A stretch of 64,000 nt of DNA from Candidatus Gastranaerophilales bacterium. Its GTDB lineage: Bacteria; Cyanobacteriota; Vampirovibrionia; Gastranaerophilales; Gastranaerophilaceae. The notes under the pieces are model-generated. The model was not told where the DNA came from. It did not search any database and worked only from the letters and a program-made list of their open reading frames with translations. The translations under genes were made by a program, and so were the position numbers. The DNA lies in assembly GCA_944324435.1 (NCBI GenBank), contig CALUWH010000006.1, positions 166 to 64,165 on the forward strand, in the 5' to 3' direction. Numbering within the stretch: position 1 is the first letter of the stretch; each line of letters begins with the position of its first letter. Positions 681-45,209 of this stretch are shown piece after piece.

Positions 681-1781
681 TTGGATAAAAATGGATATTT
701 TTGGATAAATAAACGGATAAAGATGATTAATGAAGAAAGCATAAAAATTTCAAATCAAATGTTATCAATAATTTCAGAGCTTGATGAATTTAAAGGATCT
801 TGGAAATTGTTGGGACAATTATCACCAGAAAGACTGAAAACACTTAAAAAAGTGGCAACTATTGAAAGTGTCGGTTCTTCTAATCGTATTGAAGGCAATA
901 AACTTAGTGATAAACAGGTTGAAGAACTGTTATCAAATATAAAAAAACAATCTTTCGCAACCCGTGATGAGCAAGAAGTTGCAGGGTATGCGCGGTTAAT
1001 GGATACAATATTTGAAGATTGGGAAGTTATAAATTTTAACGAAAATTATATAAAGCAGTTGCATAAAATCCTTTTGCAATATTCAACAAAAGACGAAAGA
1101 CACAAAGGGAATTATAAAAAGATTTCAAATGCTGTTGCGGCATATTCGCCAGAAGGCAAAGAATTAGGAATCGTCTTTGAAACTGCAACACCGTTTGAAA
1201 CACCATTAAAAATGGAGGAATTGGTTAATTGGACAAGAAAAAATCTTGAAGACAGATATTATCATCCTTTAATTGTAATAGGTATTTTCATTGTTAATTT
1301 TCTTGCAATTCACCCTTTTGAAGATGGAAATGGGCGTCTTTCACGTGCAATTACTTGTTTGTTATTATTGAAATCCGGATATAATTACATGCAATATAGT
1401 TCACTAGAAGCTGTTATTGAAGATAACAAAGAAGGCTATTATAGAGCATTAAGACAAACACAAACTACACTAAAAAATAATGTACCCAATTATGAACCTT
1501 GGTTAATATTCTTTTTGAAATCTTTGCAAAAGCAAAAAATAAGACTTGAATACAAACTTAACGAAAAAGAGATAAACTTAAATCAAGAAAACTTAACGGA
1601 ACTTGAAATGCAAATTTTAGAATATTTTGAACAAAATGAGCACGGTACAAATACTAGATTGCTTGAATATACGAAAGCAAATAGAAATACACTTAAAAAA
1701 TCATTATCAAACCTTGTGAATAAAAAGTATCTAATAATGCACTCAAAAGGACGTGGAGCTTGGTATTCTATAACTAGGTAG
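681..1781 (+). CDS. Fic family protein (AMPylase-type, class II auto-inhibited) with a C-terminal wHTH-like region; the likely true start is ATG 723
   Basis: Canonical Fic motif HPFEDGNGRLSR (nt 1311-1346). An upstream inhibitory motif S-x-x-x-E-G (SNRIEG, nt 879-896) is also present. Confidence 0.9.
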   Translation: MDKNGYFWINKRIKMINEESIKISNQMLSIISELDEFKGSWKLLGQLSPERLKTLKKVATIESVGSSNRIEGNKLSDKQVEELLSNIKKQSFATRDEQEVAGYARLMDTIFEDWEVINFNENYIKQLHKILLQYSTKDERHKGNYKKISNAVAAYSPEGKELGIVFETATPFETPLKMEELVNWTRKNLEDRYYHPLIVIGIFIVNFLAIHPFEDGNGRLSRAITCLLLLKSGYNYMQYSSLEAVIEDNKEGYYRALRQTQTTLKNNVPNYEPWLIFFLKSLQKQKIRLEYKLNEKEINLNQENLTELEMQILEYFEQNEHGTNTRLLEYTKANRNTLKKSLSNLVNKKYLIMHSKGRGAWYSITR

Positions 1782-1835
1782 CTTAATTATTTATTTTTAT
1801 TGAGTTATAGCATCGCTTAAATCTCTATCATCGTA

Positions 1836-1979
1836 TTAATTTTTATTTTGGGATGATTGAGGTTTTGGGTCTGCTGGTCTTGGTGTTTTTTTATCTGTAT
1901 TTACACCGCCTTTTTTTTCATAACCTTCATTAAATTTAGTATATCCGTTGATAGCTTTTATTGTTTTATTCTCCTTCAT
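1836..1979 (-). CDS. Small hypothetical protein (47 aa, MKENKTIKAINGYTKFNEGYEKKGG...)
   Basis: ORF below the track cutoff, preceded by a strong SD GAGGAGG 7 nt upstream of the ATG. No recognisable family. Confidence 0.3.
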   Translation of the reverse strand: MKENKTIKAINGYTKFNEGYEKKGGVNTDKKTPRPADPKPQSSQNKN

Positions 1980-2035
1980 TTTTTTCCTCCTCTGGCTTAT
2001 AAAATTCTATTGTAATATCATTTTCACATCTTGTT

Positions 2036-2230
2036 ATGCCATTAACCAATGGTACAAACGGACTTGAAGAAATTCGCTGTAATCTGCCAAACGGGATTGC
2101 AAGAATTATCTTTTGTGTTGAAGATAACTCTATCATACTTTTACACGCATTTATCAAGAAAACTCAAAAAACACCGCAAAAAGACTTAGATATAGCAATA
2201 AAACGTTATAAGGATTTAAGCAAAAGATAG
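2036..2230 (+). pseudogene. N-terminally truncated RelE/HigB (Gp49-like) toxin remnant
   Basis: The C-terminal signature ...IARIIFCVEDNSIILLHAFIKKTQKTPQKDLDIAIKRYKDL is typical of Gp49/HigB-like toxins. About 45 N-terminal residues are missing, with an in-frame stop upstream. Confidence 0.55.
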
Positions 2231-2237
2231 AATAACT

Positions 2238-2636
2238 ATGACCTATTTTGACATAGGTATATTGCATAATAAAAGTACAAAGGACAAAAAAATGAAATAT
2301 TTAATACGAGCAAACAAAGTAGTTTTTAGCGGAAATATGCAAATGATAATAAAGTACATTTCAGATTTTTATAAATCGGAAACTAAGGAATGGACTGGTA
2401 AAAGCGGTGAATGGAACGACTTAGGGAAGTTTAAAACTTTTATAGAATCTATGGGATATTCAATCAAAGATAAAATTCCTTCAAATTGTCGTTGTGAGGG
2501 AACTGCGGTAACAAACTACGAATTTATTAAAGTGTGGTGTGAATGTAAGTTTGATATTCAAGCTGTTGCTGAAAGGTTACACATAGATAAAAGAACTGTT
2601 GCACAAATTGTTAGAAAGTTAAAATTAAGGAAATAA
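2238..2636 (+). CDS. Hypothetical protein with a C-terminal HTH-like segment; likely start ATG 2292; abuts rtcB
   Basis: The C-terminus DIQAVAERLHIDKRTVAQIVRKL resembles a resolvase/sigma-r4-type HTH. Its stop lies 2 nt before the rtcB ATG. Confidence 0.45.
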   Translation: MTYFDIGILHNKSTKDKKMKYLIRANKVVFSGNMQMIIKYISDFYKSETKEWTGKSGEWNDLGKFKTFIESMGYSIKDKIPSNCRCEGTAVTNYEFIKVWCECKFDIQAVAERLHIDKRTVAQIVRKLKLRK

Positions 2637-2638
2637 TT

Positions 2639-3760
2639 ATGTATGAGATTCAAGGCAAATATACATCAGCAAAAGTTTTTACAGAAAATGAAGAGACTGA
2701 TATTACAGAACAAATATTAGCAATTTGCAACCACCCGATATTCAATGGTTGCAAAGTAAGAATTATGCCGGATTGTCATAGAGGCAAAGGTTGTACAATA
2801 GGGTTTACAGCTGAAATACCGAAAAATGGAGAGATTATTCCAAATATAATCGGAGTAGACCAATCCTGCGGAATGCTTACTGTAAAACTCAAAAAATCTA
2901 AAACTCTGAATGATTTTGCAAAATTAGACAAAGTTATTAGAGAATGTGTTCCATTCGGGCAAAACGGCAGAAAAGAAATAAGCTCGCATGTTCCTAATAA
3001 TTTGGTAGAAAAAGTCAAACAAATTTCAATAGACTACTTGAAAGAAAAAGCTGACAGTGATTTAAGAAAAATCGGTTCATTGGGAGGCGGAAATCATTTT
3101 ATTTCAATCGAAAAAGGAACAACCGGTACTTACTTGATTATTCATACAGGTTCAAGAAATTTTGGCAAAAAACTTGCAATTTATTTTCAAACATTAGCAA
3201 TAGAACAAAATTGTTATGGGGAGGGTGAATTAAAAAATTTATCTTATTTAACCGGTAAAAATGCTCAAGATTATCTTGAATGTGCACAAGTTTGTAATGA
3301 ATATGCACATTTCAATCGTTATGTTATTGCAAAAGAGATTTTGAATGCTATGGGGTGGAAGTCAGAAGATGAATTTGAAACAGTCCATAATTATATTGGC
3401 CAAGATAATATAATCAGAAAAGGTGCAATTTCTTGCTATAAGGATGAAAAAGTCTTAATACCTCTCAATATGGTAGATGGCTCACTAATTTGTATCGGCA
3501 GAGGAAATTCTGATTGGAATAACTCCGCTCCACATGGTGCAGGCAGGGCATTATCTCGGACACAGGCAAAAGAACAATTAACAATGCAAGAATACAAAAA
3601 GCAGATGAAAAACATATTTTCAAGCTGTGTTTCAATCGCTACACTTGATGAAGCTCCAATGGCTTACAAAAATAGTGATGAGATAATTTCAGCGATTGCA
3701 CACACCGCTCAAATTATAGACCACTTGAAACCGTTATACAACTTTAAAGCAGAAGAATAG
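2639..3760 (+). CDS. rtcB: RtcB family RNA 3'-phosphate ligase
   Basis: Conserved RtcB blocks are present: MPDCHRGKG, GGGNHFISIE, HTGSRNFG, HNY, APHGAGR. Confidence 0.9.
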   Translation: MYEIQGKYTSAKVFTENEETDITEQILAICNHPIFNGCKVRIMPDCHRGKGCTIGFTAEIPKNGEIIPNIIGVDQSCGMLTVKLKKSKTLNDFAKLDKVIRECVPFGQNGRKEISSHVPNNLVEKVKQISIDYLKEKADSDLRKIGSLGGGNHFISIEKGTTGTYLIIHTGSRNFGKKLAIYFQTLAIEQNCYGEGELKNLSYLTGKNAQDYLECAQVCNEYAHFNRYVIAKEILNAMGWKSEDEFETVHNYIGQDNIIRKGAISCYKDEKVLIPLNMVDGSLICIGRGNSDWNNSAPHGAGRALSRTQAKEQLTMQEYKKQMKNIFSSCVSIATLDEAPMAYKNSDEIISAIAHTAQIIDHLKPLYNFKAEE

Positions 3761-3904
3761 ACCAATGGAAGACAACATATTTAATGAAAGCTGAAAACAA
3801 ATTAATATGAATTTTTGTAAATAGCCGGATTAGGTAAAAAATTATTTTTAAACGAGTATTTTATCATATATTTAGACAAAATATTCTTGAGGAGGATTTA
3901 ATGA

Positions 3905-4450
3905 TTAATCAGAAACAAAGATATATATTTTTTTGTTTTCAAAGATGAATAATCCTGCAACGCCGTTTTCTTTTGAAGGCTGTTTGACAAACTTCTCGTC
4001 AATATATGACCATCTGCATTCAAAATCTCTTGAGATTCCGATGTAGTTTCCTTTTTCCTCCGGTATAACAAAATCATTTGACAGAATAAGATCACACCAC
4101 ATTATCATGAATGATTCTTCGCTAGAAAAATCTGAAAGGGCTTCCTTTATACCGGAAATAGTACCTTTTTTAGAAGCTTTTATAATTTTATAGTTATATT
4201 TATCTCCAAAAGCTTGAAGGTATTTTTCAAGAACATCTGTTTTGTAATCTGCAATTATAGTAAAATCAGCTTCAGGGAACTTTTGAAACGCATAAAATAA
4301 AATCGGCAGATTATTAACAGGCACCAAACATTTAGGCTTGTTTCTGGTAAGTCATTCCAGTCTTGTTCCTTTACCGCCGGCTTGTATAATTATTTTCGGG
4401 CGTGTATTTTTATTCGTTTTATCATATTCCTGATGTAAAATTGTTCCCAT
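3905..4450 (-). pseudogene. Sugar-phosphate nucleotidyltransferase pseudogene (in-frame TGA at 4352-4354, truncated C-terminus)
   Basis: ATG 4450 gives ...IIIQAGGKGTRLE-TGA-LTRNKPKCLVPVNNLPIL..., the GxGTRL and PKxLVPV nucleotidyltransferase signature. The ORF ends after ~180 codons, at a junction with a plus-strand SD+ATG stub. Confidence 0.7.
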
Positions 4451-4927
4451 TTATAAACACACTCCTTCACGAAATCTCAAGTTCATATTCTCGTTTACGC
4501 CAATAAATTGTAAAGTCTGTTCTACTGTTGACTGATTAAAAAGCCATTGCAGATACGATAAATCCTTGTACTTTTGATAATAATGATAAGCAAAGGTTTT
4601 ACGCCAGGAAGCGACTGAATAATTGTGTAATGCTAATTCCGTACAGATATTCCTGAATGAATTAAAAACAGTACTTCTGTTTAGAGGTTTACCTTGTCTT
4701 GTACTAAAAATATAATCATTATTATTTTTATCTTTAATAAGTGTTAATATAAGTTCTTTCATATTGTTATTCAGGGGAAAAGTTTTGGAATTTTCTAAGA
4801 CAAGATATTGCTTATTTTTAACATCTTTCACACGCAGTTTTAGCATGTCGTTGAGTGCAAAACCTGTATTGATTCCGATTTCAAACAACAATAGATCCCG
4901 GTAGTTGTTCTGCTTTCTATACAACAA
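4451..4927 (-). CDS. Tyrosine-recombinase catalytic-domain-like protein, short and probably inactive
   Basis: It aligns by eye to the integrase C-terminal domain. GINTGFALNDMLKLRVKDV matches box I but lacks the Arg. SWRKTFAYHY matches HxxR. QSTVEQTLQFI matches the region that should carry the catalytic Tyr, here Phe. There is no N-terminal SAM-like domain. Confidence 0.45.
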   Translation of the reverse strand: MLYRKQNNYRDLLLFEIGINTGFALNDMLKLRVKDVKNKQYLVLENSKTFPLNNNMKELILTLIKDKNNNDYIFSTRQGKPLNRSTVFNSFRNICTELALHNYSVASWRKTFAYHYYQKYKDLSYLQWLFNQSTVEQTLQFIGVNENMNLRFREGVCL

Positions 4928-5036
4928 CTTGATATTATCTATAGTTTTAGTATCTTTTATTGATTAGCAAAGGGGCGCTTTTCTGCAAGCCTTTTTTATG
5001 TTAGAATAAGTCTGTAGAAGAAATGAGTTTTTAGAT

Positions 5037-6110
5037 ATGTTCCCAAAAAGAATAAAAACCAATATGGAAACGGAAATTCTTGAGCAAAAAAAGATTATTC
5101 CATATATATTGATGAAATATATTAATTCCCATACAGGTGAAATAAGAATAGATTTGCCTCAGAATATTACAAAAATTGTTCTTGTTGCGAGCGGTTCGTC
5201 ATATCACTGTGCGAGATTTGCCGTCGATTTATTGGAAAAAATCTCAAAGATTGAAACACGCGCAATATATTCAAGTGAATTTTTGCTCAAGAGCGTTATA
5301 CCCAAAGATGAGAACACATTATACATTTTTATCACCCAGTCTGGAGAAACAAGTGATACTGTTAAGTCTGCGAGAAGGGTAAAGGATTCCACTAATCTGC
5401 CCACTCTATGTATAACAAATAGCGAAAACTCAACCATTTGGAACCTGTGTGATTATAAAGCGGCTTGTTTTGCCGGAAAAGAGAGAGGTATTGCTGCAAC
5501 AAAATCATTTACTTCCCAGATGCTGTGTCTTATTTTGATTTCTTTGAAGCTGGTCGAAATTCTTCACCGCTCCAATGAACAGACAAAAGAGTATATAGAA
5601 TCTTTGAATTATTTGCCAATAATAATTGAGAGAGCTTTAAATAAGCGAGATGAGATAAAGAAGCTCGCAAAAATTTTATCTAAAGAAAAATTGATTGTTA
5701 TAACAGCAGACGGAATTTCTTATTCACTTGCCAAGGAGGCTGCTTTAAAAATAAAAGAGACCTCATACAAAAATATAAGCGCAGCAATTTTGGGCGAATT
5801 TATGCACGGGCATGTTGCTGTTTTTAACAATCACGGAACATTACTCTACATTGCGGTTGATCAGATATCAGAACGTTCTTCAGTTAACCTCAACAAAATA
5901 AAGCAGGATTACAATCCGCGCCTTGTCATTATTGGCCCTTCAGGAGCAGATATTAAACCCGATATAAATATTAATGTGGAATGTGATAATGAAATCCAGC
6001 AGATGTTTGCAAATGTTATTATCTGCCAGCAGCTTGCCTTAGAAACTGCACTAAACCTCGGGAGAAACGTTGACCATCCCAAAGGGCTGACAAAAGTTTT
6101 AAAGACATGA
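5037..6110 (+). CDS. Double-SIS-domain sugar-phosphate isomerase/deaminase (GlmS isomerase-domain-like)
   Basis: VASGSSYHCARFA and ITQSGETSDT motifs are present, the size fits two SIS domains, and the C-terminus is GlmS-like. Confidence 0.75.
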   Translation: MFPKRIKTNMETEILEQKKIIPYILMKYINSHTGEIRIDLPQNITKIVLVASGSSYHCARFAVDLLEKISKIETRAIYSSEFLLKSVIPKDENTLYIFITQSGETSDTVKSARRVKDSTNLPTLCITNSENSTIWNLCDYKAACFAGKERGIAATKSFTSQMLCLILISLKLVEILHRSNEQTKEYIESLNYLPIIIERALNKRDEIKKLAKILSKEKLIVITADGISYSLAKEAALKIKETSYKNISAAILGEFMHGHVAVFNNHGTLLYIAVDQISERSSVNLNKIKQDYNPRLVIIGPSGADIKPDININVECDNEIQQMFANVIICQQLALETALNLGRNVDHPKGLTKVLKT

Positions 6111-6174
6111 AATCTTGTTTCTTAGAGCATTGATAATGCAGTCGTATAGGCGGTTTGCCTAGGTTTAGGGAATT

Positions 6175-6501
6175 TTACTTGTCGCATCTTTTGCTATAAT
6201 ACTCACCCCACTCTGCCATAGATTGTAAAACGGGGTTTAATGTCATGCCGAGTTCTGATAATTTATACTCAACCCTTGGCGGAACCTCGGGATAAATTTT
6301 GCGAATCAAAAGTCCGTTTCCCTCAAGTTCGCGCAGATTGTCGGTTAACACTTTTTGAGAACATCCGACACTCCGCTGCAGTTCGCCAAAACGTTTTACA
6401 CCTCCGAGCAGGTCGCGGATGATGAGAATTTTCCACTTGTTGCCGATAAGTTTTAATAACACTGCAACAGGACAGGGCGGTAAATCTTTTTTGTCTAACA
6501 T
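6175..6501 (-). CDS. HxlR family transcriptional regulator
   Basis: CPVAVLLKLIGNKWKILIIRDL...RFGELQRSV...LTDNLRELEGNGLLIRKIYPEVPPRVEYKLSELG is typical of HxlR. Confidence 0.85.
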   Translation of the reverse strand: MLDKKDLPPCPVAVLLKLIGNKWKILIIRDLLGGVKRFGELQRSVGCSQKVLTDNLRELEGNGLLIRKIYPEVPPRVEYKLSELGMTLNPVLQSMAEWGEYYSKRCDK

Positions 6502-6616
6502 GCTTGTTTTTCCTCAATAGTTACTTTTTTAATACTACATTACAAAATTGTGCCTACTTTACTTTTGTACTGCTACAGTTTAACATAATATTGTAAAAAA
6601 AGAAAGGCGGTATAAA

Positions 6617-7036
6617 ATGGAAATTATTGTAAAAAATTACAAAGAAGAAAAAGGCAAACTTCAAGGCCAGGGCCAAAATACTTATAACGTAAAACCAATT
6701 GCGGCAGGAAAATGCAGCGCTAACTTTGTTGAAGTCGAACCGGGAAATTTTGCATACGGCTACCACTGGCACGAAGAAAACGAAGAAGTATTTTATATAA
6801 TATCAGGCGAAGCTTCTGTTAAGACCGTAAACGGTGATATCAGACTCAAACAGGGCGATGCTATATATTTCCCTGCAAATGAAAAGGGCTCACACGTAAT
6901 CTCTAACCCATCAAAGACCGAAAAACTCGTTTATCTTGATTTCGGCACCCTGAATAAACCTGATGTTGTTCATTTTACGGGAACAAATGCCGGCATGGTA
7001 ATTTCAAATACAGGCGTACACCATTTGGAGTTTTAG
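6617..7036 (+). CDS. Cupin domain protein
   Basis: Cupin_2 motif GYHWHEENEEVFYIISGEA...GDAIYFPANEKGSH. It is divergent from the HxlR gene. Confidence 0.75.
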   Translation: MEIIVKNYKEEKGKLQGQGQNTYNVKPIAAGKCSANFVEVEPGNFAYGYHWHEENEEVFYIISGEASVKTVNGDIRLKQGDAIYFPANEKGSHVISNPSKTEKLVYLDFGTLNKPDVVHFTGTNAGMVISNTGVHHLEF

Positions 7037-7182
7037 AATATGAGTGTTGAGCAAAATAAAGAATTAATGAAAAAATTCGAGATAATGATAACTACTGCGG
7101 ACGAGAGGCTTGCAGAAGGCATGATTGCAATTTTGCGCGGAATAGGAATTTGTCCATAGTTTCAAGAAATTGTTTGGCGGAA

Positions 7183-7300
7183 TTTTACCGAACGGTAAAA
7201 TTCCGCATGTCAAGTATGTAAAGTTTTCTAAATTTTACCGCTCGGTAAAAAACATTGACTTTGTAAACAAAAAATGTTATATTTTTACTGAACGGTAAAA
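7183..7300. promoter_or_regulatory. Three 18-bp palindromic operators TTTTACCG-NN-CGGTAAAA (7183-7200, 7233-7250, 7283-7300) upstream of hipB
   Basis: Read directly: ttttaccgaacggtaaaa, ttttaccgctcggtaaaa, ttttactgaacggtaaaa. Centre-to-centre spacing is exactly 50 bp. Confidence 0.75.
7255..7283 (+). promoter_or_regulatory. Sigma70-like promoter of hipBA (-35 TTGACT 7255-7260, 17-nt spacer, -10 TATATT 7278-7283)
   Basis: Consensus-like hexamers with 17-bp spacing, bracketed by operators 2 and 3. Confidence 0.6.
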
Positions 7301-7317
7301 TTTTATCCCATACTATC

Positions 7318-7521
7318 ATGCAAATCAAAGACTTAGAGACATTGGCAGCGCTTGTTAAAAAGACGCGCAAAGAACAAAATTTAACACAATCAGACCTTGC
7401 AGCGGCATGTGGTGTCGGTGTCAGGTATATTGTTGATTTAGAAAAAGGGAAAGAGAGCTGCCAGATAGGTAAAGCCTTAAAGATTGTTCGCATGCTCGGA
7501 ATTGAACTTGAGGCAAAGTAG
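7318..7521 (+). CDS. hipB: HipB-like XRE-family antitoxin
   Basis: The HTH region QNLTQSDLAAACGVGVRYIVDLEKGK sits immediately upstream of hipA. Confidence 0.85.
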   Translation: MQIKDLETLAALVKKTRKEQNLTQSDLAAACGVGVRYIVDLEKGKESCQIGKALKIVRMLGIELEAK

Positions 7522-7522
7522 G

Positions 7523-8785
7523 ATGGCTATGAATCCGGAGAAGACATTAACTGTAAGATTAAATAAAAATTTTGTCGGATATCTCGAGCAGGATTTGCAG
7601 GGTAAATTTGTTTTCACGTATGACAAAGATAACAAAATTCCGCTCTCTTTGAGCCTTCCTTTAAGAGAAGAGCCTTATTTGGATAAAGAATGCAGAGGAT
7701 TTTTTGAGGGACTGCTTCCGGAAGGTGAACAAATAAGACTTTATATCGGAAAAAAATACGGCATTAATCCTAAAAATGAATTCAGCCTCTTGAAGGCTAT
7801 CGGGTATGATTGTGCAGGAGCGGTGTCTTTTAGTGATTATGAGGAAAATCCTAAAAATATAAAAAATGATTTTATAAAAATTGAAGGAAAAAAATTTACA
7901 GATAAAGCACTGGAAGACTATATCTCGGACTTGCCGTTAAAGCCGCTTTTGACAAACTCTGACGGTTTAAGACTTTCTCTTGCCGGAGCGCAGGATAAGA
8001 TGGCCGTTGTTTTGATTGATAATGTTGTATCACTGCCAGACAAAGATGTTCCGACAACCCATATTCTTAAACCGGAGATGAAAGATATTGAAAGTTCTGT
8101 AGAAAATGAATATATCTGTCTGAACGTTGCAAAAGAAATCGGATTGAATGTTTGTAATTGTGAAATCAGAACAACCGGAAATATTAAGTATCTTCTGCTT
8201 GAACGTTATGACCGTGAGCTTAAAGGAAATCAGGTAAAAAGGATACATCAGGAGGACTTCTGTCAGGCAAAAAATATCACAAGCACTTTCAAGTATGAAA
8301 GAGAGGGCGGAATAAACATAAAAGACTGTTATGAAATTATAAGACATACAAAAACGCCGGCGTTAAATATAATAGAACTTACAAATCGAATTATTTTTAA
8401 TTATCTCATAGGGAATGCAGATGCCCATGGCAAAAATTTTTCTCTTTTGTACACGGATACCGGCATTCAATTTGCGCCGGCTTATGATATTCTATGTACT
8501 GCAATATATCCGGATTTGACTTCCAATATGGCTATGAAAATCGGAGGACACTACGAGCCTGATAAAATATGTGAGCACAATTGGGAAAAAATGGCAGAAA
8601 GTGTCGGTATTAACTACACACAACTAAAAAAAATGATAATAGAACAAGCACGAATTCTTACTCCAACGATAGAAAACTTCATAGTAACAAATGAAATCGA
8701 TGCTCCGGTTGCAAATAATCTTATAAAATTTGTAAGAGATAATTGCAGAAGGGTGCTTAGGAGGTTTGGTTTATTTAGTGACTAA
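7523..8785 (+). CDS. hipA: HipA family serine/threonine kinase toxin (the track ORF starts at 7484; ATG 7523 is more likely)
   Basis: Motifs SLAGAQDKMAV, LLERYDR, HQEDFCQA, NADAHGKNFSLL and APAYDI. The ATG lies 2 nt after the hipB stop. Confidence 0.9.
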   Translation: MAMNPEKTLTVRLNKNFVGYLEQDLQGKFVFTYDKDNKIPLSLSLPLREEPYLDKECRGFFEGLLPEGEQIRLYIGKKYGINPKNEFSLLKAIGYDCAGAVSFSDYEENPKNIKNDFIKIEGKKFTDKALEDYISDLPLKPLLTNSDGLRLSLAGAQDKMAVVLIDNVVSLPDKDVPTTHILKPEMKDIESSVENEYICLNVAKEIGLNVCNCEIRTTGNIKYLLLERYDRELKGNQVKRIHQEDFCQAKNITSTFKYEREGGINIKDCYEIIRHTKTPALNIIELTNRIIFNYLIGNADAHGKNFSLLYTDTGIQFAPAYDILCTAIYPDLTSNMAMKIGGHYEPDKICEHNWEKMAESVGINYTQLKKMIIEQARILTPTIENFIVTNEIDAPVANNLIKFVRDNCRRVLRRFGLFSD

Positions 8786-11597: not shown

Positions 11598-11792
11598 AAT
11601 ATATCCTCCTGTTTCTATGATTTATAATACTATAAACAAGGATTTTTTCTACAAAATATTAAGTTTGCGTAAAGAAATTAAGTTTGCCGAGAAACAAATG
11701 TAACAAATTGTTACATTAAAACAGTTGAAAAAGGCAATTTTTTCGTGCAGGCATACTTTTTATATATAGGAATAATAAAGAGGATAAAATTT

Positions 11793-13925
11793 ATGGGTAT
11801 GCCATTCTATTTTTCGAGTATAAATCATTCAATGTTGAGCCAGAATCCGTGCGATTCCATAAACTTATTTTGGAATCAGCAGATAGAGTCCAGCAAAGCA
11901 AAAGAATTAATGTATATGACACCGGCTTATGATTTTAGTATGGTATGGCGTTTCCCGGAAGTAGCAACCTGGGGCAATTCACTTTTAGACCCGACTCTTG
12001 CTATTCAACAGACTTTGCAGAATTTTCAGAATAGTAATTCCTGGAATAATATGTGGAGCTTTGATAATATCAAGTGGAATTTTACCCCTTGGACTAACAA
12101 GGATGGTAATGATAACGGTTCAAAGAAAACCGATGCGGAAAGACTTGCAGAAAAGAGAATGCAGCGCGAGTATAATGATTTAAAAACTCTTATAACTGCG
12201 TATAAGAATATTGCACAAGGAAATTCAACGCTTAATCCCGAATTGCTTGATGAGATTGAAGTTGCCTTAAATAAATCAGGGAAAATAGAAGAAAAATTAG
12301 ACGCATTAAAAGATGTTTATAATAAACTTAGTAAACCTGCTTTAAAAAAGACAATTGCTTCTATTTCAACAGATGATTTTGGCTTGAAGGAACGTCTTGA
12401 ACAAGCAGGATATAACTTTGGCGACAAGGATTACAGTTATAGAAATGCAAAAGATACGGATTTGAACTCTATGTTAGATAGAATTCACAGCGAGATTGCA
12501 AGTATATCCAGCAGCAATGCAAACGGAATGAAAGAGTTCAAGGGGTTGGTTGAACCTATGGTATCCGATTCTGATAATGAAATATTGCGAGTTATAAGCT
12601 ACTGGAACGACAAGTATGGCGTTACAGAGGACGAAGACGGCAACAAAACCAATGAAGAAAGAAGTATTATCCGTTTTATGATTAAACAGATGGATGGACT
12701 TGATGACAATGCAAAGAAAGATGTCATGAGCTCTGCCAATAAACTTGTTGATGCTCTTACTGCCCGGGCAAATCAGATAAAAGATAACGGACAGGCTTTT
12801 GATGAAACGACTATCTCAGCACTTGGAAATCAGATAACAAATGTTAACAAGGCCAAAGAGGCTGCGACGAAAGACCTGACTTCAACAGCATTAGAAAATC
12901 TGGCTCAAGAATTTGAGAAGCTCTACGTAATGCTCAGGAGAATGGAAGCTTTAGAAATTAATCAGAAAATCAACAATAAGTACGGATTTTTGAATAATAT
13001 TTCAACAACAGATGTAAATATTATCAATGAAGACATAATAGTAAAAGATACCGAAGCCGACTTGAAAAAAGAAGGTTTAGACGGTGTTGATACTTCAAGT
13101 GTACAGTTAGTTGATTATCAGCCGAGTACCGTAATCAACGACGGAAACGGAGAGAACGGCGGAAACGACGAAGAGAACGATATTGCATCTGTAAGCGAGT
13201 TGAAACAACTTGTCTCCGCAGGTACTCTGGAGCAGGCAAAGGATGCTCTAAATTCTGCCAATGAGGTTAAAAATTGTTATAAGGACAAGAACGGGACTTA
13301 TTATACAGTAAGAGAGGGCAAAATTATCAGGCTTGATGATGTTATTAAAGTCTACAGCAATGGCAGATGCAAAACAAAAGATAATAAAATGCATAATATA
13401 TCCGATATAAAAGGAACGGAAGTTACAACCTCCTTTTTTGCCGCATTGGAATCGGGAAAATACGCGCAAGAGGGCGAGGAAATCTGTGCTATATTGAAAA
13501 AACTACTCGGTCATACACCAAAAATTGCCGGTGAGGAGATTATCGATACTATAGAAAACAGATTAACATCCAAAAATATTTATTATGTCCTTAAAGGATG
13601 GCAAGAGATTAATGAACTTGGATGTGACGGGTACGGCGGATTATGCGATCAAATTGACAATGAAGGAGATTGGTCATTATTAGAAACCGCTTTCGTTAAT
13701 GACGAAATTAAAGCGTCAGTTATAGGTAAAATTTTGGATTGCGTCTTAGACTGGGCAAAAGAAAACGATTTAGATGAAACAGTTTACTACAAAGAGCTTA
13801 AAAAACTTAAAGATAATCCACCATCAGGCGTTGAGGCAAACGAAAATATCAGACGAAACGTTGAACAGGTAGATCAATACATTGCATATCTTTACAGTGC
13901 TTATGAAAAAAAATTGAATAAATAA
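11793..13925 (+). CDS. Large hypothetical protein (the track ORF starts at GTG 11745; ATG 11793 has the SD AGAGGA)
   Basis: Long ORF with ordinary coding composition and no recognisable domains. Confidence 0.6.
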   Translation: MGMPFYFSSINHSMLSQNPCDSINLFWNQQIESSKAKELMYMTPAYDFSMVWRFPEVATWGNSLLDPTLAIQQTLQNFQNSNSWNNMWSFDNIKWNFTPWTNKDGNDNGSKKTDAERLAEKRMQREYNDLKTLITAYKNIAQGNSTLNPELLDEIEVALNKSGKIEEKLDALKDVYNKLSKPALKKTIASISTDDFGLKERLEQAGYNFGDKDYSYRNAKDTDLNSMLDRIHSEIASISSSNANGMKEFKGLVEPMVSDSDNEILRVISYWNDKYGVTEDEDGNKTNEERSIIRFMIKQMDGLDDNAKKDVMSSANKLVDALTARANQIKDNGQAFDETTISALGNQITNVNKAKEAATKDLTSTALENLAQEFEKLYVMLRRMEALEINQKINNKYGFLNNISTTDVNIINEDIIVKDTEADLKKEGLDGVDTSSVQLVDYQPSTVINDGNGENGGNDEENDIASVSELKQLVSAGTLEQAKDALNSANEVKNCYKDKNGTYYTVREGKIIRLDDVIKVYSNGRCKTKDNKMHNISDIKGTEVTTSFFAALESGKYAQEGEEICAILKKLLGHTPKIAGEEIIDTIENRLTSKNIYYVLKGWQEINELGCDGYGGLCDQIDNEGDWSLLETAFVNDEIKASVIGKILDCVLDWAKENDLDETVYYKELKKLKDNPPSGVEANENIRRNVEQVDQYIAYLYSAYEKKLNK

Positions 13926-14994: not shown

Positions 14995-15747
14995 TTATTT
15001 TACGTAAAAATTAGCATTCACACTTGCGTTAATCTTTACCACTCCTTTTGATATAGATGTCGGAGCAGAACCGGCCGCCTCGTCCGTAACAGCGCTCATA
15101 AGATTTTTTGCCATATACATTCTTGGGGTCGCATAGTTATTAGCATTGCAGCTTACATTAAAACTTTTTATTCCGTCAACAGAAGTCGAAAGTGCTTTTG
15201 CAACGACACCTGCTCTTGTTTGGGCTTTCTTTGTTGCAATTTCAATTAAATCATTACATTGTGATTCATAATTTGATACGGAAAAAGTCAGATTATCTAC
15301 ATTTGTTGCACCGGCGGCAATCGCTTTGTCTATCATATCTCCGACCTTATCTATAGATTTTGTATGTACAATAACTCTGTTTGAAACCTCATACTTGTCA
15401 AGATTGCGTTTGCTGCCTGAATAACTGTAAATTGGCGAAGCGCTGTAGTCGGCTGTTTTAATATAATCTCCGTTTACTCCGGAAATCATTGACTTTAAAA
15501 CATTGTAAACTTTGTCCGAAGCCTCTTTGTTCATAAGCGTTGCCTTTTGCATAGATTTAGCATCAGATGTTTGTACCGCAAAAGAGATTTCTGCAACATC
15601 AGGAGCAATTTCAGTATTTGCGGTAGTGTTTACGGAAATAAATCCTCTTTCGGAAGCCGTTTCAGCTACAGACCCTGCTTGGGTTGAGAGAGAAGCGCAG
15701 CCTGCAAGTAAACTCAACATAGTAATTGCTATTAAAGTTTTTTTCAT
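14995..15747 (-). CDS. SIMPL/DUF541 family periplasmic lipoprotein
   Basis: Lipobox LLAGC signal peptide. The SIMPL-like pattern is ISVNTTANTEIAPDVAEISFAV... Confidence 0.65.
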   Translation of the reverse strand: MKKTLIAITMLSLLAGCASLSTQAGSVAETASERGFISVNTTANTEIAPDVAEISFAVQTSDAKSMQKATLMNKEASDKVYNVLKSMISGVNGDYIKTADYSASPIYSYSGSKRNLDKYEVSNRVIVHTKSIDKVGDMIDKAIAAGATNVDNLTFSVSNYESQCNDLIEIATKKAQTRAGVVAKALSTSVDGIKSFNVSCNANNYATPRMYMAKNLMSAVTDEAAGSAPTSISKGVVKINASVNANFYVK

Positions 15748-15803
15748 ATTTCCTCCTGTTAATTTCTCTTCTATTATACTATAAACATATCTTCATAGGT
15801 TAA

Positions 15804-15842
15804 AGTTCCGTAGGATGCGGTCAATCATAGATTGACCGCATC
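15804..15842 (+). repeat. M0 module: AGTTCCGTAGG plus a 9-bp-stem hairpin (gcggtcaat/attgaccgc)
   Basis: Related copies lie at 16064-16100 (+, degenerate), 16133-16168 (-) and 33984-34032 (+). Confidence 0.65.
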
Positions 15843-16132
15843 AAATCAGCTTTTTAAATTTTTTGCGAGCGTGCGGCGGAGCCGCGATAGCGAGCACAAG
15901 AGTGCAGGCTTGCCTGCAACAGCCATTTAATCCCACCCCCTTAGGGCGTAGAAAACATTTGCGGATTTTCTCTTTCTTTTCGTTCTTTTCTTTCTCTTTT
16001 TATTCGCAACAAAAGAGAAAGAAAAGGACATATTATGAGGTTAAATTAAATTATATGCCTCTTTCTTGTGTAGGCAAGACTTTAGATTTACCGCATCAAC
16101 AAAAATCGTAAACTATAACTATAATAGAAATG

Positions 16133-16552
16133 TTTCGGTAATCAGAGATTACCAAAACCTACGGAACTATCTTGGTGAAGAGTGAGGAGTGAGGGGAGCG
16201 TTTTTTATGTGACCAGGTGACTAAGTGATCAGGTGATCAAGTGACCAAGTGACCAAGTGACCAAGTGTTTTTTAGTGAATAGATTTTACTTTCTTCTCAA
16301 CTTATCAACTTATAAACTCCTAAACTATAAACTACTCTTCAACCCCTCAACTATTCAACTTATCAACCCTAAAACTTCTCCTCAACTCCTAGACTCTAAA
16401 ACTACCCTTCAACCCCTCAACTATTCAACTTATCAACCCTAAAACTTCTCCTCAACTCCTAGACTCTAAAACTACCCTTCAACCCCTCAACTATTCAACT
16501 TTTCAACTCCATAACTTCCCCACAACTCCTCAACCTCTCAACTTCTAAACTC
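16133..16552 (+). repeat. Composite short-tandem-repeat element, copy A (modules M0-M1-M2-M3-linker-M5)
   Basis: Contains [GTGAGGN], [GTGAYCAR]x7, GTGAATAG, then ~260 nt of [CTNNTCAA] units. A 70-bp higher-order unit is repeated 2.3 times (16341-16501). Confidence 0.9.
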
Positions 16553-17454
16553 TAAAACTCCTCTTCAGCAGCCGGGCTGCAAGAAATTATATTGAACTCG
16601 TTGTCCCATGTAATTTCTCCCTGCGGCTCAAGGTTATGGTACCTGTAGACATTTTCTATATACTCCGGCCTAAATAATCCTTTTTTACCCAGAATTTGGA
16701 TAATTTCCGGAAGGAGTTTTGTACTGCCGGCAATTGTTCCGTCCGCAGATACCGCCTTCTTGCCGTCATAATAGATTTTTGAATCCGCAAATACCGTTTC
16801 TTTTACTGTGCTGTACGTTATTGGAAGCGAGTCGCTGATTAAGATAACTTTATCCGTAGGTTTTGATTTAAAAAACAACTTTAAAGCTTCATCACTTACG
16901 TGAAGGCCGTCCCCTATTATTTCCGCATAAGCGTCATCATCAACAAGCGCAGAAAGCGCGGTCGAACTCCCTCTGTGAGAAACCGGAGCCATTGCATTGA
17001 ATGTATGAGTAGCTGCATCAATGTTTCCCCAGCCTGTACAGTGACCGGCCTGAACTTTAATACCTTTGGATTTTAGATAATCAATCAGTCCCTCATCAAG
17101 CTCCGGAGCTAGTGTTACTATTTTTATAAATTCGTCTTCTATTCTTTTGTAATTTTCAACCGTTAGAGTTAGAAAGTGCTCCGGATTATGAATCCCCTTT
17201 TTTGCAGGATTAATGAAAATTCCTTCAAGATGTATTCCCAGGATTTCCGGTGTGAACCTTGAAGCCCGTTTTATTTCTTCAATTTGGCGCTTGATATTTT
17301 GAACAGAGTCAGTCACTAGTGTAGGGAAAAAACCGCCAATACCGATTCCTCGCAGTTTTATCGCTAATTCTGAAATATCCTCCGCACTTGCCGTATTGAA
17401 ATTTACGCCGTAAGCGCCATGGAAATGCTGTTCTATAATCAAAGGTGTTTTCAT
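16552..17454 (-). CDS. NagA-like amidohydrolase (N-acetylglucosamine-6-phosphate deacetylase family, short form)
   Basis: Motifs HFHGAYGVNF, GIHLEGIFINPAKKGIH, VTLAPE, THTFNAM, GDGLHV and ISDS. The TAATG overlap with the murE stop suggests coupling. Confidence 0.7.
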   Translation of the reverse strand: MKTPLIIEQHFHGAYGVNFNTASAEDISELAIKLRGIGIGGFFPTLVTDSVQNIKRQIEEIKRASRFTPEILGIHLEGIFINPAKKGIHNPEHFLTLTVENYKRIEDEFIKIVTLAPELDEGLIDYLKSKGIKVQAGHCTGWGNIDAATHTFNAMAPVSHRGSSTALSALVDDDAYAEIIGDGLHVSDEALKLFFKSKPTDKVILISDSLPITYSTVKETVFADSKIYYDGKKAVSADGTIAGSTKLLPEIIQILGKKGLFRPEYIENVYRYHNLEPQGEITWDNEFNIISCSPAAEEEF

Positions 17455-24161: not shown

Positions 24162-25643
24162 ATGTCAATGGGCAGCTATTACAGCATGAATAATCCGTTT
24201 TATTCTCCAAATGTGAGTTTTAGGAATACTCAAAATTCTCCTGCACTTCCGGCTCCTATTGAAAAAGTAGAGACCACTATTAATGACACGGTTGATACAT
24301 TTGTTAAGAAGAGTGAAGAGGAAGAAAGAAAGGTTTCCAACAGAACGGCAGTAGCTGTAGGAAGCAGTGTTCTTGTTCTTTCCGGTTTAGTTGCACTGTT
24401 AAACCCTAAATTTTCCGGCAAGTTTATTAACCGCTTGAAATCTTGGGCTGCAAAGAGTGAAGCAAAAATAGATAAGAATAAAAATGACTTTGTGAAAAGC
24501 AAATTCTACGCCGGTGTCACTAAGATATTAAAAAATGTTGCCGATGCGTTCCAATTTACAAACAGCCTGAATGCTTCAAAGGATGTCGGGTTTAAGTGGC
24601 TGTGCACTGCGGAAAAATTTGGCGGTGTAAAAAACGAAACAACCCGAAACGTTTTACAAACCTGTGATAAAGGCTTCAGAAAAATAATGTCTAAAGTACA
24701 TTCATCAATTACAAATTGGTTTGACAGCATAAGCAAGCATACTGTTCATGGTAAATACAAACAAGCCGGCAACAAGCTGGATTCTCTTGAGAACATGATA
24801 AAAACATACCGCAATAAACTTCCTCGCGAGGAAAGGTTAAAAATAGATGCAAAGCTTCAAGAGATTACATCCGCCCGAGAGTATTTCTCTGTATCTCAAA
24901 CAAATGCGCGGCTTAAACATCAGGAAGACTTAATGTCTAATATAGAACACGATTTTGCTGCAAAATTAAAAGATTTTGCAGGAAACTTCCAGGGCTTAAA
25001 ATCAAAAGGAACATTCAAAGAAAAGTTCAATCACAATGTTAACAATGTTAAGGATAACATGTCTTTTTGGGCAGAAGACATGCTTATGCCTCAGCGAAAC
25101 AAGTTAGAGCAGGAAGGGATAGATGTTGTAAACAAGCTTATGGGCGACACAAAAACTCAGAAAGGTAAGTACGATGAAATTATTGATATTTTATCACCGC
25201 ATATAAGCAAAGAAGACAGGCATGTATTAGAAGTAAGTTTGCACAAAGCAGGAAGAAAACTGCGAAAAGCAAACCATAGTGAAAGTGTGGAATATTTTGA
25301 TAAAAAAAGAGATTTAATGCTTGGCGGCGCACCTATGGACATTTTAACAGGGCTCGGCGCGGTTGCTCTGAGCGGAATAGCTGTTGGTACTGCGCATGAT
25401 AAAGAGGACCGTATCTCAAGAGCTTTAACAGTCGGCTTTCCTGCGGTTGCAGGTATCGGAACATCTCTGGCGTTTACGGCAATGCTGTTTTCAGGAGTGC
25501 AGAGCCTTTTGTACGGTGCAATCTCCAGTGTTGTACTGAGTAAAATGGGAAGCGTTGCTGATAAATATTTGACACCCAAAAAGCCTGATATACAATTGGC
25601 TGATATAAATACAAAAGAAACGGAGGTTATAGTCAATGCTTAA
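24162..25643 (+). CDS. Hypothetical membrane protein (one N-proximal and two or three C-terminal TM segments)
   Basis: Long ORF with hydrophobic segments AVAVGSSVLVLSGLVALL and GLGAVALSGIAVG / FPAVAGIGTSLAFTAMLF. No known domain. Confidence 0.6.
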   Translation: MSMGSYYSMNNPFYSPNVSFRNTQNSPALPAPIEKVETTINDTVDTFVKKSEEEERKVSNRTAVAVGSSVLVLSGLVALLNPKFSGKFINRLKSWAAKSEAKIDKNKNDFVKSKFYAGVTKILKNVADAFQFTNSLNASKDVGFKWLCTAEKFGGVKNETTRNVLQTCDKGFRKIMSKVHSSITNWFDSISKHTVHGKYKQAGNKLDSLENMIKTYRNKLPREERLKIDAKLQEITSAREYFSVSQTNARLKHQEDLMSNIEHDFAAKLKDFAGNFQGLKSKGTFKEKFNHNVNNVKDNMSFWAEDMLMPQRNKLEQEGIDVVNKLMGDTKTQKGKYDEIIDILSPHISKEDRHVLEVSLHKAGRKLRKANHSESVEYFDKKRDLMLGGAPMDILTGLGAVALSGIAVGTAHDKEDRISRALTVGFPAVAGIGTSLAFTAMLFSGVQSLLYGAISSVVLSKMGSVADKYLTPKKPDIQLADINTKETEVIVNA

Positions 25644-32735: not shown

Positions 32736-33546
32736 GACTTATGTGATAACGGGCTCTGCCTCAGGTATAGGGAGAGCACTGCTTGAAAGACTTGCACCCG
32801 AGAATGTAATATTTGCAGGTTATAGGAATAAAGAGCATTTAGCAATGCTGGAGAAGATTTCTCCGAACATTTATCCATTTTATATAGACTACTCCAAGCC
32901 TGAAACAATACACCTGGCTGCGGATTATTTGCTGTCAAAGTGTACAAAGGTTGACTCTTTGGTTAATATAGCAGGCTGTGTCGTGGCAGGGCCTGTTGAA
33001 AAAATTGACATGAACGAGATTAGAAGGCAGTTTGATGTTAATGTGTTCGGTCATCTTGAACTCACTCAATTTTTGGCTGAAATTTTGAACGGTGGGAGGA
33101 TTATTAATATAAGTTCAATGGCGAGTTTTGGAATCTTTCCTTTTATATCTCCATATTGCGCTTCAAAGAAATGTCTTGATATGTTTTTCAACTCATTCCT
33201 TATAGAAAACAAGCGTAATATAAAGGTTATTTCGATAAAACCGGGAGTTATTGTGACGCCTCTATGGGGAAAATCTGTTGATGAGAACTCCAAAAATCTT
33301 GATAAATGTGTCGGGTACGAGGCAGAAATGCGATTTTTAATTAAAAATGCTCAAAAAAATTCAAAAGAGGGTTTGAGTGTTGAAAAGGTTGTTGACGTTA
33401 TAGTTAAAGCTGATAGGGCAAAGAATCCTAAGCTTTCATATACGGTCGGCAAAGACGCCTTTTGGGCATCTCTGATATCAAAGCTTCCGCAAGGATTGAT
33501 TAATAAACTGATTAAATTCGGTTTAAAGGCTCGAGTTAAGGGATAA
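32725..33546 (+). CDS. Short-chain dehydrogenase/reductase (SDR)
   Basis: Motifs VITGSASGIGRAL (TGxxxGxG), NIAG and YCASKK (YxxxK). Confidence 0.85.
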   Translation: MKTKTYVITGSASGIGRALLERLAPENVIFAGYRNKEHLAMLEKISPNIYPFYIDYSKPETIHLAADYLLSKCTKVDSLVNIAGCVVAGPVEKIDMNEIRRQFDVNVFGHLELTQFLAEILNGGRIINISSMASFGIFPFISPYCASKKCLDMFFNSFLIENKRNIKVISIKPGVIVTPLWGKSVDENSKNLDKCVGYEAEMRFLIKNAQKNSKEGLSVEKVVDVIVKADRAKNPKLSYTVGKDAFWASLISKLPQGLINKLIKFGLKARVKG

Positions 33547-33686
33547 AAAAAAGACCTTGTGTATTTGTAACCAAGGCCTGTCCGTTTAAATAAGAAGAGA
33601 GAGCTTTATATCTTTATAAAAAATGGTGAAAATTTTTTTTGCTAGTTTGGTGTCAAATTTGTTACAAAACTTAATATTTGGCTTTG

Positions 33687-34032
33687 GGTGAATTCAAGAA
33701 GCAATCGCAACGCTATGAAGTTAGTTTAGAAGTTGAGAGGTTGAGGAGAAGTTTTAGGGTTGATAAGTTGAATAGTTGAAAAGTTGAAAAGTAGTTTTAG
33801 GGTTTAGAGGTTGAGTAGTTTATAAGTTTAGAAGAAGTTATAAAGGGTTGATAAGTTGAGTAGTTGAGAAGTTGAGGCGAAGTTAAAAATCTATTCACTA
33901 AACACTTATTCACTTAGTCACCTGATCACCTGATCACTTGATCACTTTAAACACGCTCACTTCACCCCTCACTCTTCACGCTTTGGTTTATGAGTCCCGT
34001 AGGATGTGCTAAATCTCTTATTTACCGTATCG
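33687..34032 (-). repeat. Composite short-tandem-repeat element, copy B (reverse orientation; M5-linker-M3-M2-M1-M0)
   Basis: gtttagaagttgagaggttgagg...aaaaatctattcact...cacctgatcacctgatcacttgatcac...cacttcacccctcactcttcacg...cccgtaggatg. Confidence 0.9.
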
Positions 34033-34145
34033 AAAAGGTGTTTCAGTAATTGAAGACTAATAAAACCTGCAAGTTGCTTTTGTTTGGGGACAGTTTAACA
34101 GAAAACATCCCACGAATTAATCACTTTTGTGCTATGATTTGAATT

Positions 34146-35792: not shown

Positions 35793-35928
35793 GCTCCTGC
35801 CCTTCAACACCGGCAAAAAGTTCTACACGTTGTTTGGCTGGACTTGATTCAATCTTAGAGGTCTTAAACTCAAAGAAGCCTGCAATAAGAAGCAGGCCTC
35901 TCTATAAAAAATTTTATAAAACACATTA

Positions 35929-36363: not shown

Positions 36364-36376
36364 AAAAACCGTCCTT

Positions 36377-36769: not shown

Positions 36770-36790
36770 TCTAAACCTCTTAAAATATAT

Positions 36791-36880: not shown

Positions 36881-39618
<2,738 letters not shown>

Positions 39619-39729
39619 AATATTCTCCTTTTCCCATTATACATAAAATATGCCGAATTTTCTCCGCCTTATTAATATATATAATATTTAAGATTTTAAC
39701 ATCTCCCTGTTTGTACTATTATTAATACC

Positions 39730-40566: not shown

Positions 40567-40567
40567 G

Positions 40568-45206: not shown

Positions 45207-45209
45207 GTA

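Follow-up and report, generated by a model that had tools for sequence, protein, structure and literature searches.

The short tandemly repeated repetitive (STRR) sequences of heterocystous cyanobacteria, reportedly described by Mazel et al. in 1990, are said to be built from the heptamer units CCCCAGT, TTGGTCA, and CAACAGT. The BOX elements of Streptococcus pneumoniae and the BIME elements of Escherichia coli are assembled from 30-60-nt modules that form stable hairpins. Here we describe a family of composite repeats found in a 64,000-nt stretch of DNA (the window; contig CALUWH010000006.1, positions 166 to 64,165, of assembly GCA_944324435.1) from a Candidatus Gastranaerophilales gut bacterium, whose order is placed in the phylum Candidatus Melainabacteria (Cyanobacteriota/Melainabacteria group). 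Proteins encoded in the window recur unchanged on contigs of several gut metagenomes. The family is real, noncoding, fast-changing, and dispersed, and its copies descend from one another. Each full copy has a G-rich head and a nearly G-free tail; the copy studied most closely, copy A, has its tail at the end of a gene at 16552-17454.

The family resembles the STRR sequences in being dispersed, in consisting of very short tandem units in mostly intergenic positions, in its strand asymmetry, and in its occurrence in the Cyanobacteria/Melainabacteria lineage, and to this extent an earlier note on this DNA, made from the sequence alone, was right to call it STRR-like. The label holds by analogy and not for unit length, unit sequence, or host. 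Whereas STRRs are reportedly homogeneous heptamer arrays, the present elements combine four kinds of 7- and 8-mer units, whose order is fixed, with unique linkers and higher-order repeats; only module M1 has a period of 7, modules M2 and M5 having a period of 8. The units GTGARGN, GTGAYCAR, GTGAATA, and TYYTCAAC differ from the STRR units as these are reported, the M2 variant GTGACCAA alone containing the complement of TTGGTCA, and the host is a non-photosynthetic gut member of the Gastranaerophilales instead of a heterocystous cyanobacterium. With the BOX and BIME elements the family shares a dispersed intergenic distribution, different modules in a fixed order, and an internal module in variable number, but it is composed of arrays of 7-8-nt units and is unstructured.

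Short-unit intergenic repeats have been described in other bacteria, among them the TAACTGA repeats and the mixed heptamer assemblages of Microcystis, Gramella, Aequorivita, and Elizabethkingia (MacGregor 2015, PMC4679880). Like the present family, the TAACTGA repeats are intergenic, contain stop codons within the unit, vary by unit-sized indels, are absent from the corresponding spacer of close relatives, and break contigs; unlike it, they are described in PMC4679880 without a conserved order, linkers, or a multi-copy element, and in the Beggiatoaceae they lie mostly just 5' of start codons. The G-rich heptamer simple sequence repeats GGGAATC/GGGGAYT of Xanthomonas and Nostoc (Rehm et al. 2015, PMC4692102) are also intergenic, nearer to the end of the upstream open reading frame (ORF) than to the next ORF, length-polymorphic, and found as inverted pairs. 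However, they consist of one unit type, have G-quadruplex potential, and occupy locations more conserved than controls, whereas the elements described here stand at synteny breakpoints. In heterocystous cyanobacteria without Rho, C-rich/G-poor tracts resembling Rho utilization (RUT) sites occur near 3' ends and partly terminate transcription in E. coli (PMC13613805). These tracts and the tails of our elements have in common more C than G, a G-poor sequence downstream of genes, and membership of sister lineages, but the tracts rest on a statistical definition, with no description of them as tandem or dispersed repeats, and we infer only a possible link between the two.

A literature search on the motif and on Melainabacteria repeats found nothing relevant. 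Because the family departs from STRRs in unit length, sequence, and host, from transposable elements of the miniature inverted-repeat kind (MITEs) in terminal inverted repeats and target-site duplications, and from REP, BIME, and BOX elements in hairpin modules, we file it in the class of dispersed short-unit tandem repeats and under no named family. The earlier note had not recognized the architecture; this stands for the fixed order with unique linkers, whereas mixed repeats (PMC4679880) and repeats that hug 3' ends (PMC4692102) were already known. What is new is the conserved order combined with unique, conserved linkers, which makes this a true dispersed multi-copy element, and the host lineage. 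Short-unit arrays can evidently be welded into a multi-copy element with conserved order and linkers, and intergenic repeats of the STRR/heptamer type extend to the non-photosynthetic sister lineage of cyanobacteria.

Architecture and shared descent of the copies

On the plus strand, copy A comprises M1 (16175-16195, three GTGARGN heptamers), a unique linker GAGCGTTTTTTAT (16196-16208; family consensus GGGAGCGTGTTTWAWG), M2 (16209-16267, GTGAYCAR octamers with a period of 8 and 7.4 copies in Tandem Repeats Finder), M3 (GTGAATAG, 16275-16282), a linker ATTTT(T)AAC/ACTTT that extends to 16292, and the M5 tail (16293 to ~16563), which consists of ~270 nt of TYYTCAAC-type 8-mers with 1% G. Within the tail, Tandem Repeats Finder delimits a 70-nt higher-order unit repeated 3.1 times at 16315-16530. 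An accessory module, M0, adjoins only copies A and C within the window. At copy A, it is a REP-like hairpin, GGTAATC-AGA-GATTACC (16137-16153, plus strand), with the sequence CCTACGGAACT directly after it (16158-16168, plus strand); a second M0, with hairpin and CCTACGGAACT, lies inverted relative to the first at 15803-15845 (minus strand). Every module of the composite array of short tandem arrays proposed in the earlier note was found in its place.

Across the family, the head is composed of M1 (GTGARGN)n, the conserved unique linker, M2 (GTGAYCAR)n, and M3 (GTGAATA/GTGATTG)n, and the tail of TYYTCAAC-type 8-mers organized in 43/70/80-nt higher-order repeats. Heads contain 32-38% G and 7-11% C, tails 0-2% G and 31-38% C, and the G-free tails are 78-260 nt long. 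Composition is therefore mirror-symmetric between the two halves of the element, in agreement with the opposite strand polarity that the earlier note had ascribed to them, yet the halves are not complementary. Variation within units is concentrated at fixed positions (GTGA-Y-C/T-A-R in M2; T-N-N-T-C/A-A-A-C in the tail). In M5, an invariant AAC recurs at a spacing of 8/8/8/8/11 nt, and 94 of 141 intervals between AAC triplets are 8 nt; the tail had been described as a nearly G-free run of short units, which is correct as to composition, but the conserved 8/8/8/8/11 sequence is not a plain microsatellite. Since the phased M2 pair GTGAYCARGTGAYCA has 15 matches against 0.00 expected and three phased YMAAC tail units have 36 against 0.04 expected, a chance origin is excluded. 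The arrays do not have the form of a CRISPR, in which repeats of 24-48 nt alternate with unique spacers of about that length, since the 7-8-nt units are contiguous and so are the 43-80-nt higher-order units. In total, the repeats occupy ~1.9 kb (3%) of the window; the high density reported previously is real, although the figure of about 2.5 kb was too large.

The window holds five full copies (A, B, C, D1, and D2) and five fragments. When the five copies are aligned, the linkers GGGAGCGTGTTTWAWG and AGTGAATAGATTTT(T)AAC are invariant, and AGTGAATAG together with most of the next linker, ATTTT(T)A, is identical in all five. Two subfamilies can be distinguished, A with D2 (..TTTTATGTGACCAGGTGACTAAG..) and B with C and D1 (..TTTAAAGTGATCAAG..); the idiosyncratic stretch GGTTAGCAAGAGTGAATAGTGATTGGTGAATAG is common to B and D1, and four of six tails finish in an identical CTCAACTTCTAAACTA. 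The invariant linkers and the two subfamilies indicate that the copies are copied DNA and not independent microsatellites, and because D1 and D2 belong to different subfamilies, this adjacent pair did not arise by local duplication. All 13 full-length copies, which come from three species, follow the order M1-M2-(M3)-tail, the departures being skipped modules or tandemly duplicated heads. The objection that copies without a conserved order would point to random microsatellites is accordingly not borne out.

Independent growth of a microsatellite at each locus, or an artifact of short-read assembly, would fit the facts that many short-read contigs end inside elements and that tandem arrays of M2 octamers arise in many unrelated phyla. 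It is effectively refuted by the unique linkers and by stretches such as that common to B and D1, which recur between loci. In addition, at least six independent metagenome assemblies, from different samples and made with different assemblers, agree on the architecture and on the loci, down to identical flanks, and the motif counts expected by chance are ~0. We give this explanation hardly any credence, and the assembly artifact that the earlier note had named as a possible refutation is not borne out. Because short-read contigs break inside the elements, unit counts are nevertheless uncertain.

For the wider distribution, a scan with GTGATCARGTGATCARGTGA was made over one genome per species, with Candidatus Gastranaerophilales metagenome-assembled genomes (MAGs) among the matches, and an nhmmer profile of the five window copies was run over 229 loci. 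Full-length profile matches among these loci are limited to strains of the window species and two MAGs of sister species, CALVBV (BRZ_EM_bin122; loci L014, L022, L071 twice, and L112) and CALURX (BRZ_KQ_bin27; loci L016, L055, and L059), in which linkers have diverged, M3 is sometimes missing, and heads are sometimes tandemly duplicated. Other Gastranaerophilales MAGs contain only M2 arrays, often as intergenic inverted pairs with ~70 nt between the two arrays. The analysis covered about 20 copies in all. A BLAST search of plasmids returned only M2-type arrays, unannotated, on two unrelated plasmids, NZ_MK036885 (Leclercia) and NZ_AP025525 (Mycobacterium), and viral contigs scanned for the M1-M2 junction gave 0 matches.

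M2-type octamer arrays are also present in Acidobacteriota, Saprospiraceae, Steroidobacteraceae, Gemmatimonadales, Moorena, Streptomyces, and others. Among loci from unrelated phyla, L020, L089, L115, and L117 (all four from Acidobacteriota MAG MFD01299.bin.2.92) as well as L011 and L106 contain intergenic arrays-of-arrays of GTGATCAR octamers, and in some unrelated-phylum arrays, G-rich arrays are followed by C-rich arrays or by inverted arrays. A cross-phylum "skew-switch element" was considered and is not supported, as the downstream skew is below -0.2 in 16 loci and above +0.2 in 15, which amounts to no general switch from G-rich to C-rich. G-rich arrays upstream of M2 arrays are common in other phyla (24 versus 3).

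Strand asymmetry and position at gene ends

The possibility that the tail is coding sequence was ruled out by 8-nt indels between strains. When folded as RNA and compared with shuffled sequences, copy A gave a z-score of -0.16 for the plus strand and +2.07 for the minus strand, i.e., the latter is less structured than the shuffles; with no excess folding on either strand, a structured small RNA, a riboswitch, and a hairpin terminator were ruled out for copy A. An Rfam search of the whole window at gathering thresholds matched a single tRNA and none of the elements, and an Rfam E-value search of 15700-16650 gave only weak hairpin matches at 15948-16067, outside the element. The Rfam part of the database check proposed in the earlier note has matched no described family; there is no viral match, and plasmid matches are of the M2 type only. 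A promoter and terminator scan of 33000-51000 detected no terminator-like site inside B, C, D1, or D2 and no promoter enrichment.

The density of stop triplets is 0.12-0.16 per nt on the strands that read into an element (inbound) and 0.03-0.06 per nt on those that read out of it (outbound), with a window mean of 0.056 per nt. The high inbound density arises because the units, whose periods are 7 or 8, are of the GTGA, TTGA, TTAG, and ATAA types, and on the inbound strand all three frames are closed within 21 nt of the head or 57 nt of the tail. Whichever side a transcript enters from, its first part is rich in G and in stops and its later part is C-rich, G-poor, and unstructured. The outbound sequence is the tail in one direction and in the other the head complement, which contains 32-38% C and 7-11% G; the tails have the sequence character of a rut site, at least 70-80 nt that are C-rich, G-poor, and unstructured.

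Position was counted for the 10 full copies with readable context. In five of them (A, D2, L016, and L071 twice), a gene whose reading direction leads into the tail complement has its stop 0-16 nt from the end of the tail, and copy C has a similar arrangement with a distance of ~170 nt. In three others (B, L014, and L055), the tail lies 83-166 nt upstream of a co-oriented gene start in a divergent region, and in the tenth (L059), M1 abuts the stop codon. The complement of the copy A tail provides the last codons and the TAG stop of ORF 16552-17454, contrary to the earlier claim that all copies are intergenic. Orthologs of this ORF end in EFNI[IV] before the stop, and the window protein is 10 residues longer, ending in SCSPAAEEEF.

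The sites at which copies lie differ in related genomes. None of 80 orthologous loci 3' of the nagA-like gene (56-81% protein identity) contains a module array, apart from L138, where a single GTGAATAGATT sits at the stop codon. In relatives whose KsgA is 96% and 94% identical, ksgA is separated by 1-16 nt from the next gene, which is not that of the window, and more distant ksgA relatives differ as well. At the SDR gene, two related species match the window over the ~150 nt that follow the stop; the match breaks off precisely at the point where the sequence of copy C and its 3' module sets in, and the two species again have other downstream genes. On the basis of the nagA-like, ksgA, and SDR comparisons, the element marks the end of a conserved gene block, i.e., a synteny breakpoint, at three of three sites tested. 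A clean empty site that would fix the insertion boundaries was sought and none was found, as the downstream gene differs in every relative found.

In one relative with an 81% identical nagA-like gene (L137:3374-4060), the family is absent and GTCGTTAA-type octamers are present instead, in two inverted arrays ~650 nt apart just 3' of the nagA-like gene; related species therefore carry other unit types.

One explanation for the asymmetry is that the elements are bidirectional insulators or terminators of translation and transcription, the inbound half releasing ribosomes and the rut-like, C-rich outbound half yielding RNA that would load Rho or another termination factor. The mirror symmetry of composition and stop distribution, the lack of RNA structure with a minus strand below the shuffles, and the location of six of the 10 copies after a gene stop codon at the ends of conserved blocks are all consistent with it, and tails of 78-260 nt have lengths like those of rut sites. 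Rho-less heterocystous cyanobacteria have RUT-like tracts near 3' ends (PMC13613805). However, three of the 10 copies are in divergent promoter regions, one copy has the opposite orientation, single modules are found within normally co-transcribed operons (the atpD-atpC and efp-accB spacers), and close relatives lack the elements at the same gene ends, where they are therefore not needed. Rho itself was not found in the host DNA examined: a tblastn search for rho in the window and related DNA, which is weak evidence because the query sequence was approximate, returned only the ATP synthase beta subunit. Rho is lacking in 33 of 33 Cyanobacteriota examined, a set to which the Melainabacteria do not belong (PMC11347177). 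We consider an insulator or terminator role unlikely.

Still more doubtful is the stronger form of the idea, in which the composite elements would be purpose-built, orientation-independent "stop-and-release" insulators that close all frames inbound and present outbound a G-free, rut-like tract for the loading of Rho or of whatever factor ends transcription in the Cyanobacteria/Melainabacteria lineage. If that were true, STRR-type arrays and the RUT-like 3' signatures of Rho-less heterocystous cyanobacteria would be the same device. An insulator role would also bear on how transcription ends in the Cyanobacteria/Melainabacteria lineage, in which canonical terminators account for a minority of 3' ends (PMC13289151), and the elements would provide a sequence handle on non-canonical termination there.

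Variation between strains and mode of spread

At site A, four independent assemblies with near base-for-base flanks differ by one 70-nt unit, one 8-nt tail unit, and one 8-nt M2 unit, and the strains also exhibit G/A changes within M2. The spacer of site D is 683, 715, or 745 nt long, depending on the strain, and strain L121 has ~90 nt of tail-type units in place of the D2 head. Site B was encountered in four states: as in the window, with the tail of another copy in front (L236), with a different head and left flank (L237 and L238), and as a junction (L235). In the junction, L235:1-1346 matches window positions 42194-40857 reversed (99.3%), L235:1143-2770 matches 46793-48412 (98.0%), and the 204-nt overlap is the element itself, which joins the M23-peptidase flank of D1 to the recA-side flank of B. 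Homologous recombination between the inverted copies D1 and B, with inversion of the 5.7-kb segment that separates them, would be expected to produce this junction, but a short-read chimera through the repeat would account for it equally well; the reciprocal junction was not seen. In strain L001, the loop of the hairpin at 15803-15845 is flipped (TAT versus ATA). Copies therefore change by 8-nt and 70-nt slippage, partial duplication of heads, exchange between copies, and gain or loss of heads.

We favor the explanation, to which we assign a probability of about 0.5, that the family is a mosaic repeat, selfish or neutral, which homology-driven copying has spread and which slippage and recombination have remodeled. 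The copies are lineage-restricted and recently placed, at the boundaries of conserved blocks. Arrays of the same unit that were already in place would seed the copying, by ectopic gene conversion or by template switching, a process that would carry the module order along without a dedicated transposase and leave the ends within arrays, and the elements would then persist as selfish or neutral DNA. An insertion at the 3' end of a gene would be tolerated as nearly harmless, costing few residues because the inbound strand closes three frames within ~20-60 nt. The main consequence would be to provide substrates for recombination, with inversions and synteny breaks as the result, and effects on expression would be secondary.

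Several observations weigh against a mosaic repeat spread in this way. The CTCAACTTCTAAACTA end in four of six tails hints at a defined terminus, as in transposition. Module order, the unit cores (GTGA.. and ..AAC), and the switch from G to C are kept across three species despite fast turnover, which could reflect selection for function. The tail at 0-16 nt from a stop codon in five of 10 copies looks targeted or selected. The L235 junction and some of the structural variants could be short-read metagenome chimeras formed through the repeat, and the sample is only ~20 copies.

A non-autonomous transposable element of the MITE, REPIN, or IS200/IS605-like kind, mobilized by a transposase in trans and carrying the arrays as expanding passengers, would explain why the copies are dispersed, homologous, grouped in subfamilies, and absent from orthologous sites. 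The juxtaposition of two subfamilies at site D and the recurrent 3' end CTCAACTTCTAAACTA also favor it, as do REP-like hairpins with CCTAC(GG) beside A, C, and L014, and an nrdD upstream region that is occupied in two species in opposite orientations (L014:7222-7760 and L055:3168-3694, in both of which the conserved nrdD core promoter, TGGTATAAT, follows the element directly). L014 has three successive repeats of the head and REP-like hairpin, one every 100 nt, and in the window species the nrdD upstream region is free of elements. Compared with REP, REPIN, and BIME sequences (a palindrome of ~20-40 nt with GTAG/CTAC next to the stem), M0 alone, with its hairpin and CCTACGG, is similar, the arrays not being palindromic. 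However, the hairpins occur at some copies only. A search for terminal inverted repeats in copies B, C, and D with their flanks gave only a weak internal 17-nt match, inspection of both ends of the five window copies detected no target-site duplication, and the 5' ends start at variable points within M1. No transposase-type gene is present among the annotated genes of the 64 kb and its flanks, the viral contigs gave no match, and the plasmids gave M2-type arrays only. Transposition in trans is, in our judgment, quite improbable.

Whichever way the mosaic repeat has spread, the elements are hypervariable strain markers that mark synteny breakpoints and candidate inversions, and for metagenomics they are sites at which short-read assemblies of Gastranaerophilales MAGs break and possibly mis-join.

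Other copies, fragments, and neighboring features

Copy B (46785-47029, plus strand) consists of M1 (46786-46810), M2 (46827-46868), M3 (46877-46905), and M5 (46915-47029). It is located in a divergent promoter region, ~115 nt 5' of the ATG at 47143, and is highly polymorphic among strains. Copy C (33687-34025, minus strand) has M0 at 33993-34025, M1 at 33962-33985, M2 at 33914-33945, M3 at 33890-33912, and M5 at 33720-33880, beyond which lies an additional 3' module, TTCATAGCGTTGCGATTGCTTCTTGAATTCACC (33687-33719, minus strand). Both members of the adjacent pair are on the minus strand: D1 at 40861-41055, in the subfamily of B and C, and D2 at 40568-40858, in the subfamily of A, with a tail that begins 10 nt or less from the ksgA-like stop at 40566. 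The recurrence of the module order near 46785 on the plus strand and, reverse-complemented, in the regions of 33687, 40568, and 40862, as the earlier note had it, was recovered in full, and all five of its fragments are present.

The M5 complement followed by M5, i.e., an inverted pair, is found without strand assignment at 36790-36884 in the atpD-atpC spacer, and the same succession occurs at 49812-49927 in the efp-accB spacer. An M1 array followed by a partial complement of M1 lies 3' of accB (50397-50450, plus strand). The corresponding spacer regions, 36770-36880 (atpD-atpC), 49812-49938 (efp-accB), and 50395-50522 (accB and the next ORF), hold single modules, and because these gene pairs are normally co-transcribed, single modules are tolerated inside operons. 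The fragment at 53599-53697 (minus strand), an M5 tail with the copy C 3' module and an inverted M3, is the sole exception to the module order; since it reverses the relation between M5 and M3, the fixed order that had been claimed for the family as a whole applies to the full copies only. The fifth fragment is an M2-only array (55674-55717, minus strand) in the 5' leader/promoter region of dnaK, in a spacer of equal length in five strains, unlike those that hold full elements.

M2-only arrays in 5' leaders or promoter regions, such as that of dnaK with its constant spacer, raise the question of binding-site arrays. A protein that binds DNA or RNA, be it a regulator, a nucleoid protein, or an RNA binder of ring shape, would then recognize every 7-8-nt unit as a separate site. 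The concentration of unit variation at fixed positions would fit such sites, and heptamer repeats modulate promoter use in Nostoc (bioRxiv 10.1101/2022.06.06.494920). Yet unit number varies freely among strains, position and orientation relative to promoters are inconsistent, unit uniformity is also a product of slippage-driven concerted evolution, and no candidate protein was identified, all of which makes binding-site arrays highly improbable.

Between the inverted M0 hairpins upstream of copy A (~340 nt) are a GC-rich segment (15860-15960) and a perfect purine/pyrimidine hairpin (15972-16039). The whole of 15803-16168 was considered as a multi-copy MITE flanked by inverted M0 and rejected, since there is no other copy in the 229 loci. 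The region 3' of the SDR gene at 33547-33700 (minus strand) is conserved in three species, with a perfect intrinsic terminator, GGACAGGCCTTGGTTACAAATACACAAGGTCTTTTTTTT, at its minus-strand end, and is on the basis of its sequence a candidate for a small RNA gene, for which Rfam gave no significant match. ORFs 11745-13925 (726 residues) and 24162-25643 (493 residues), neither of which has a Pfam match, are kept in sister strains. Finally, the segment at 681-8785 encodes Fic (681-1781), RtcB (2639-3760), and HipA (7484-8785) beside helix-turn-helix and cupin genes, and looks like a toxin-antitoxin or stress-type island.

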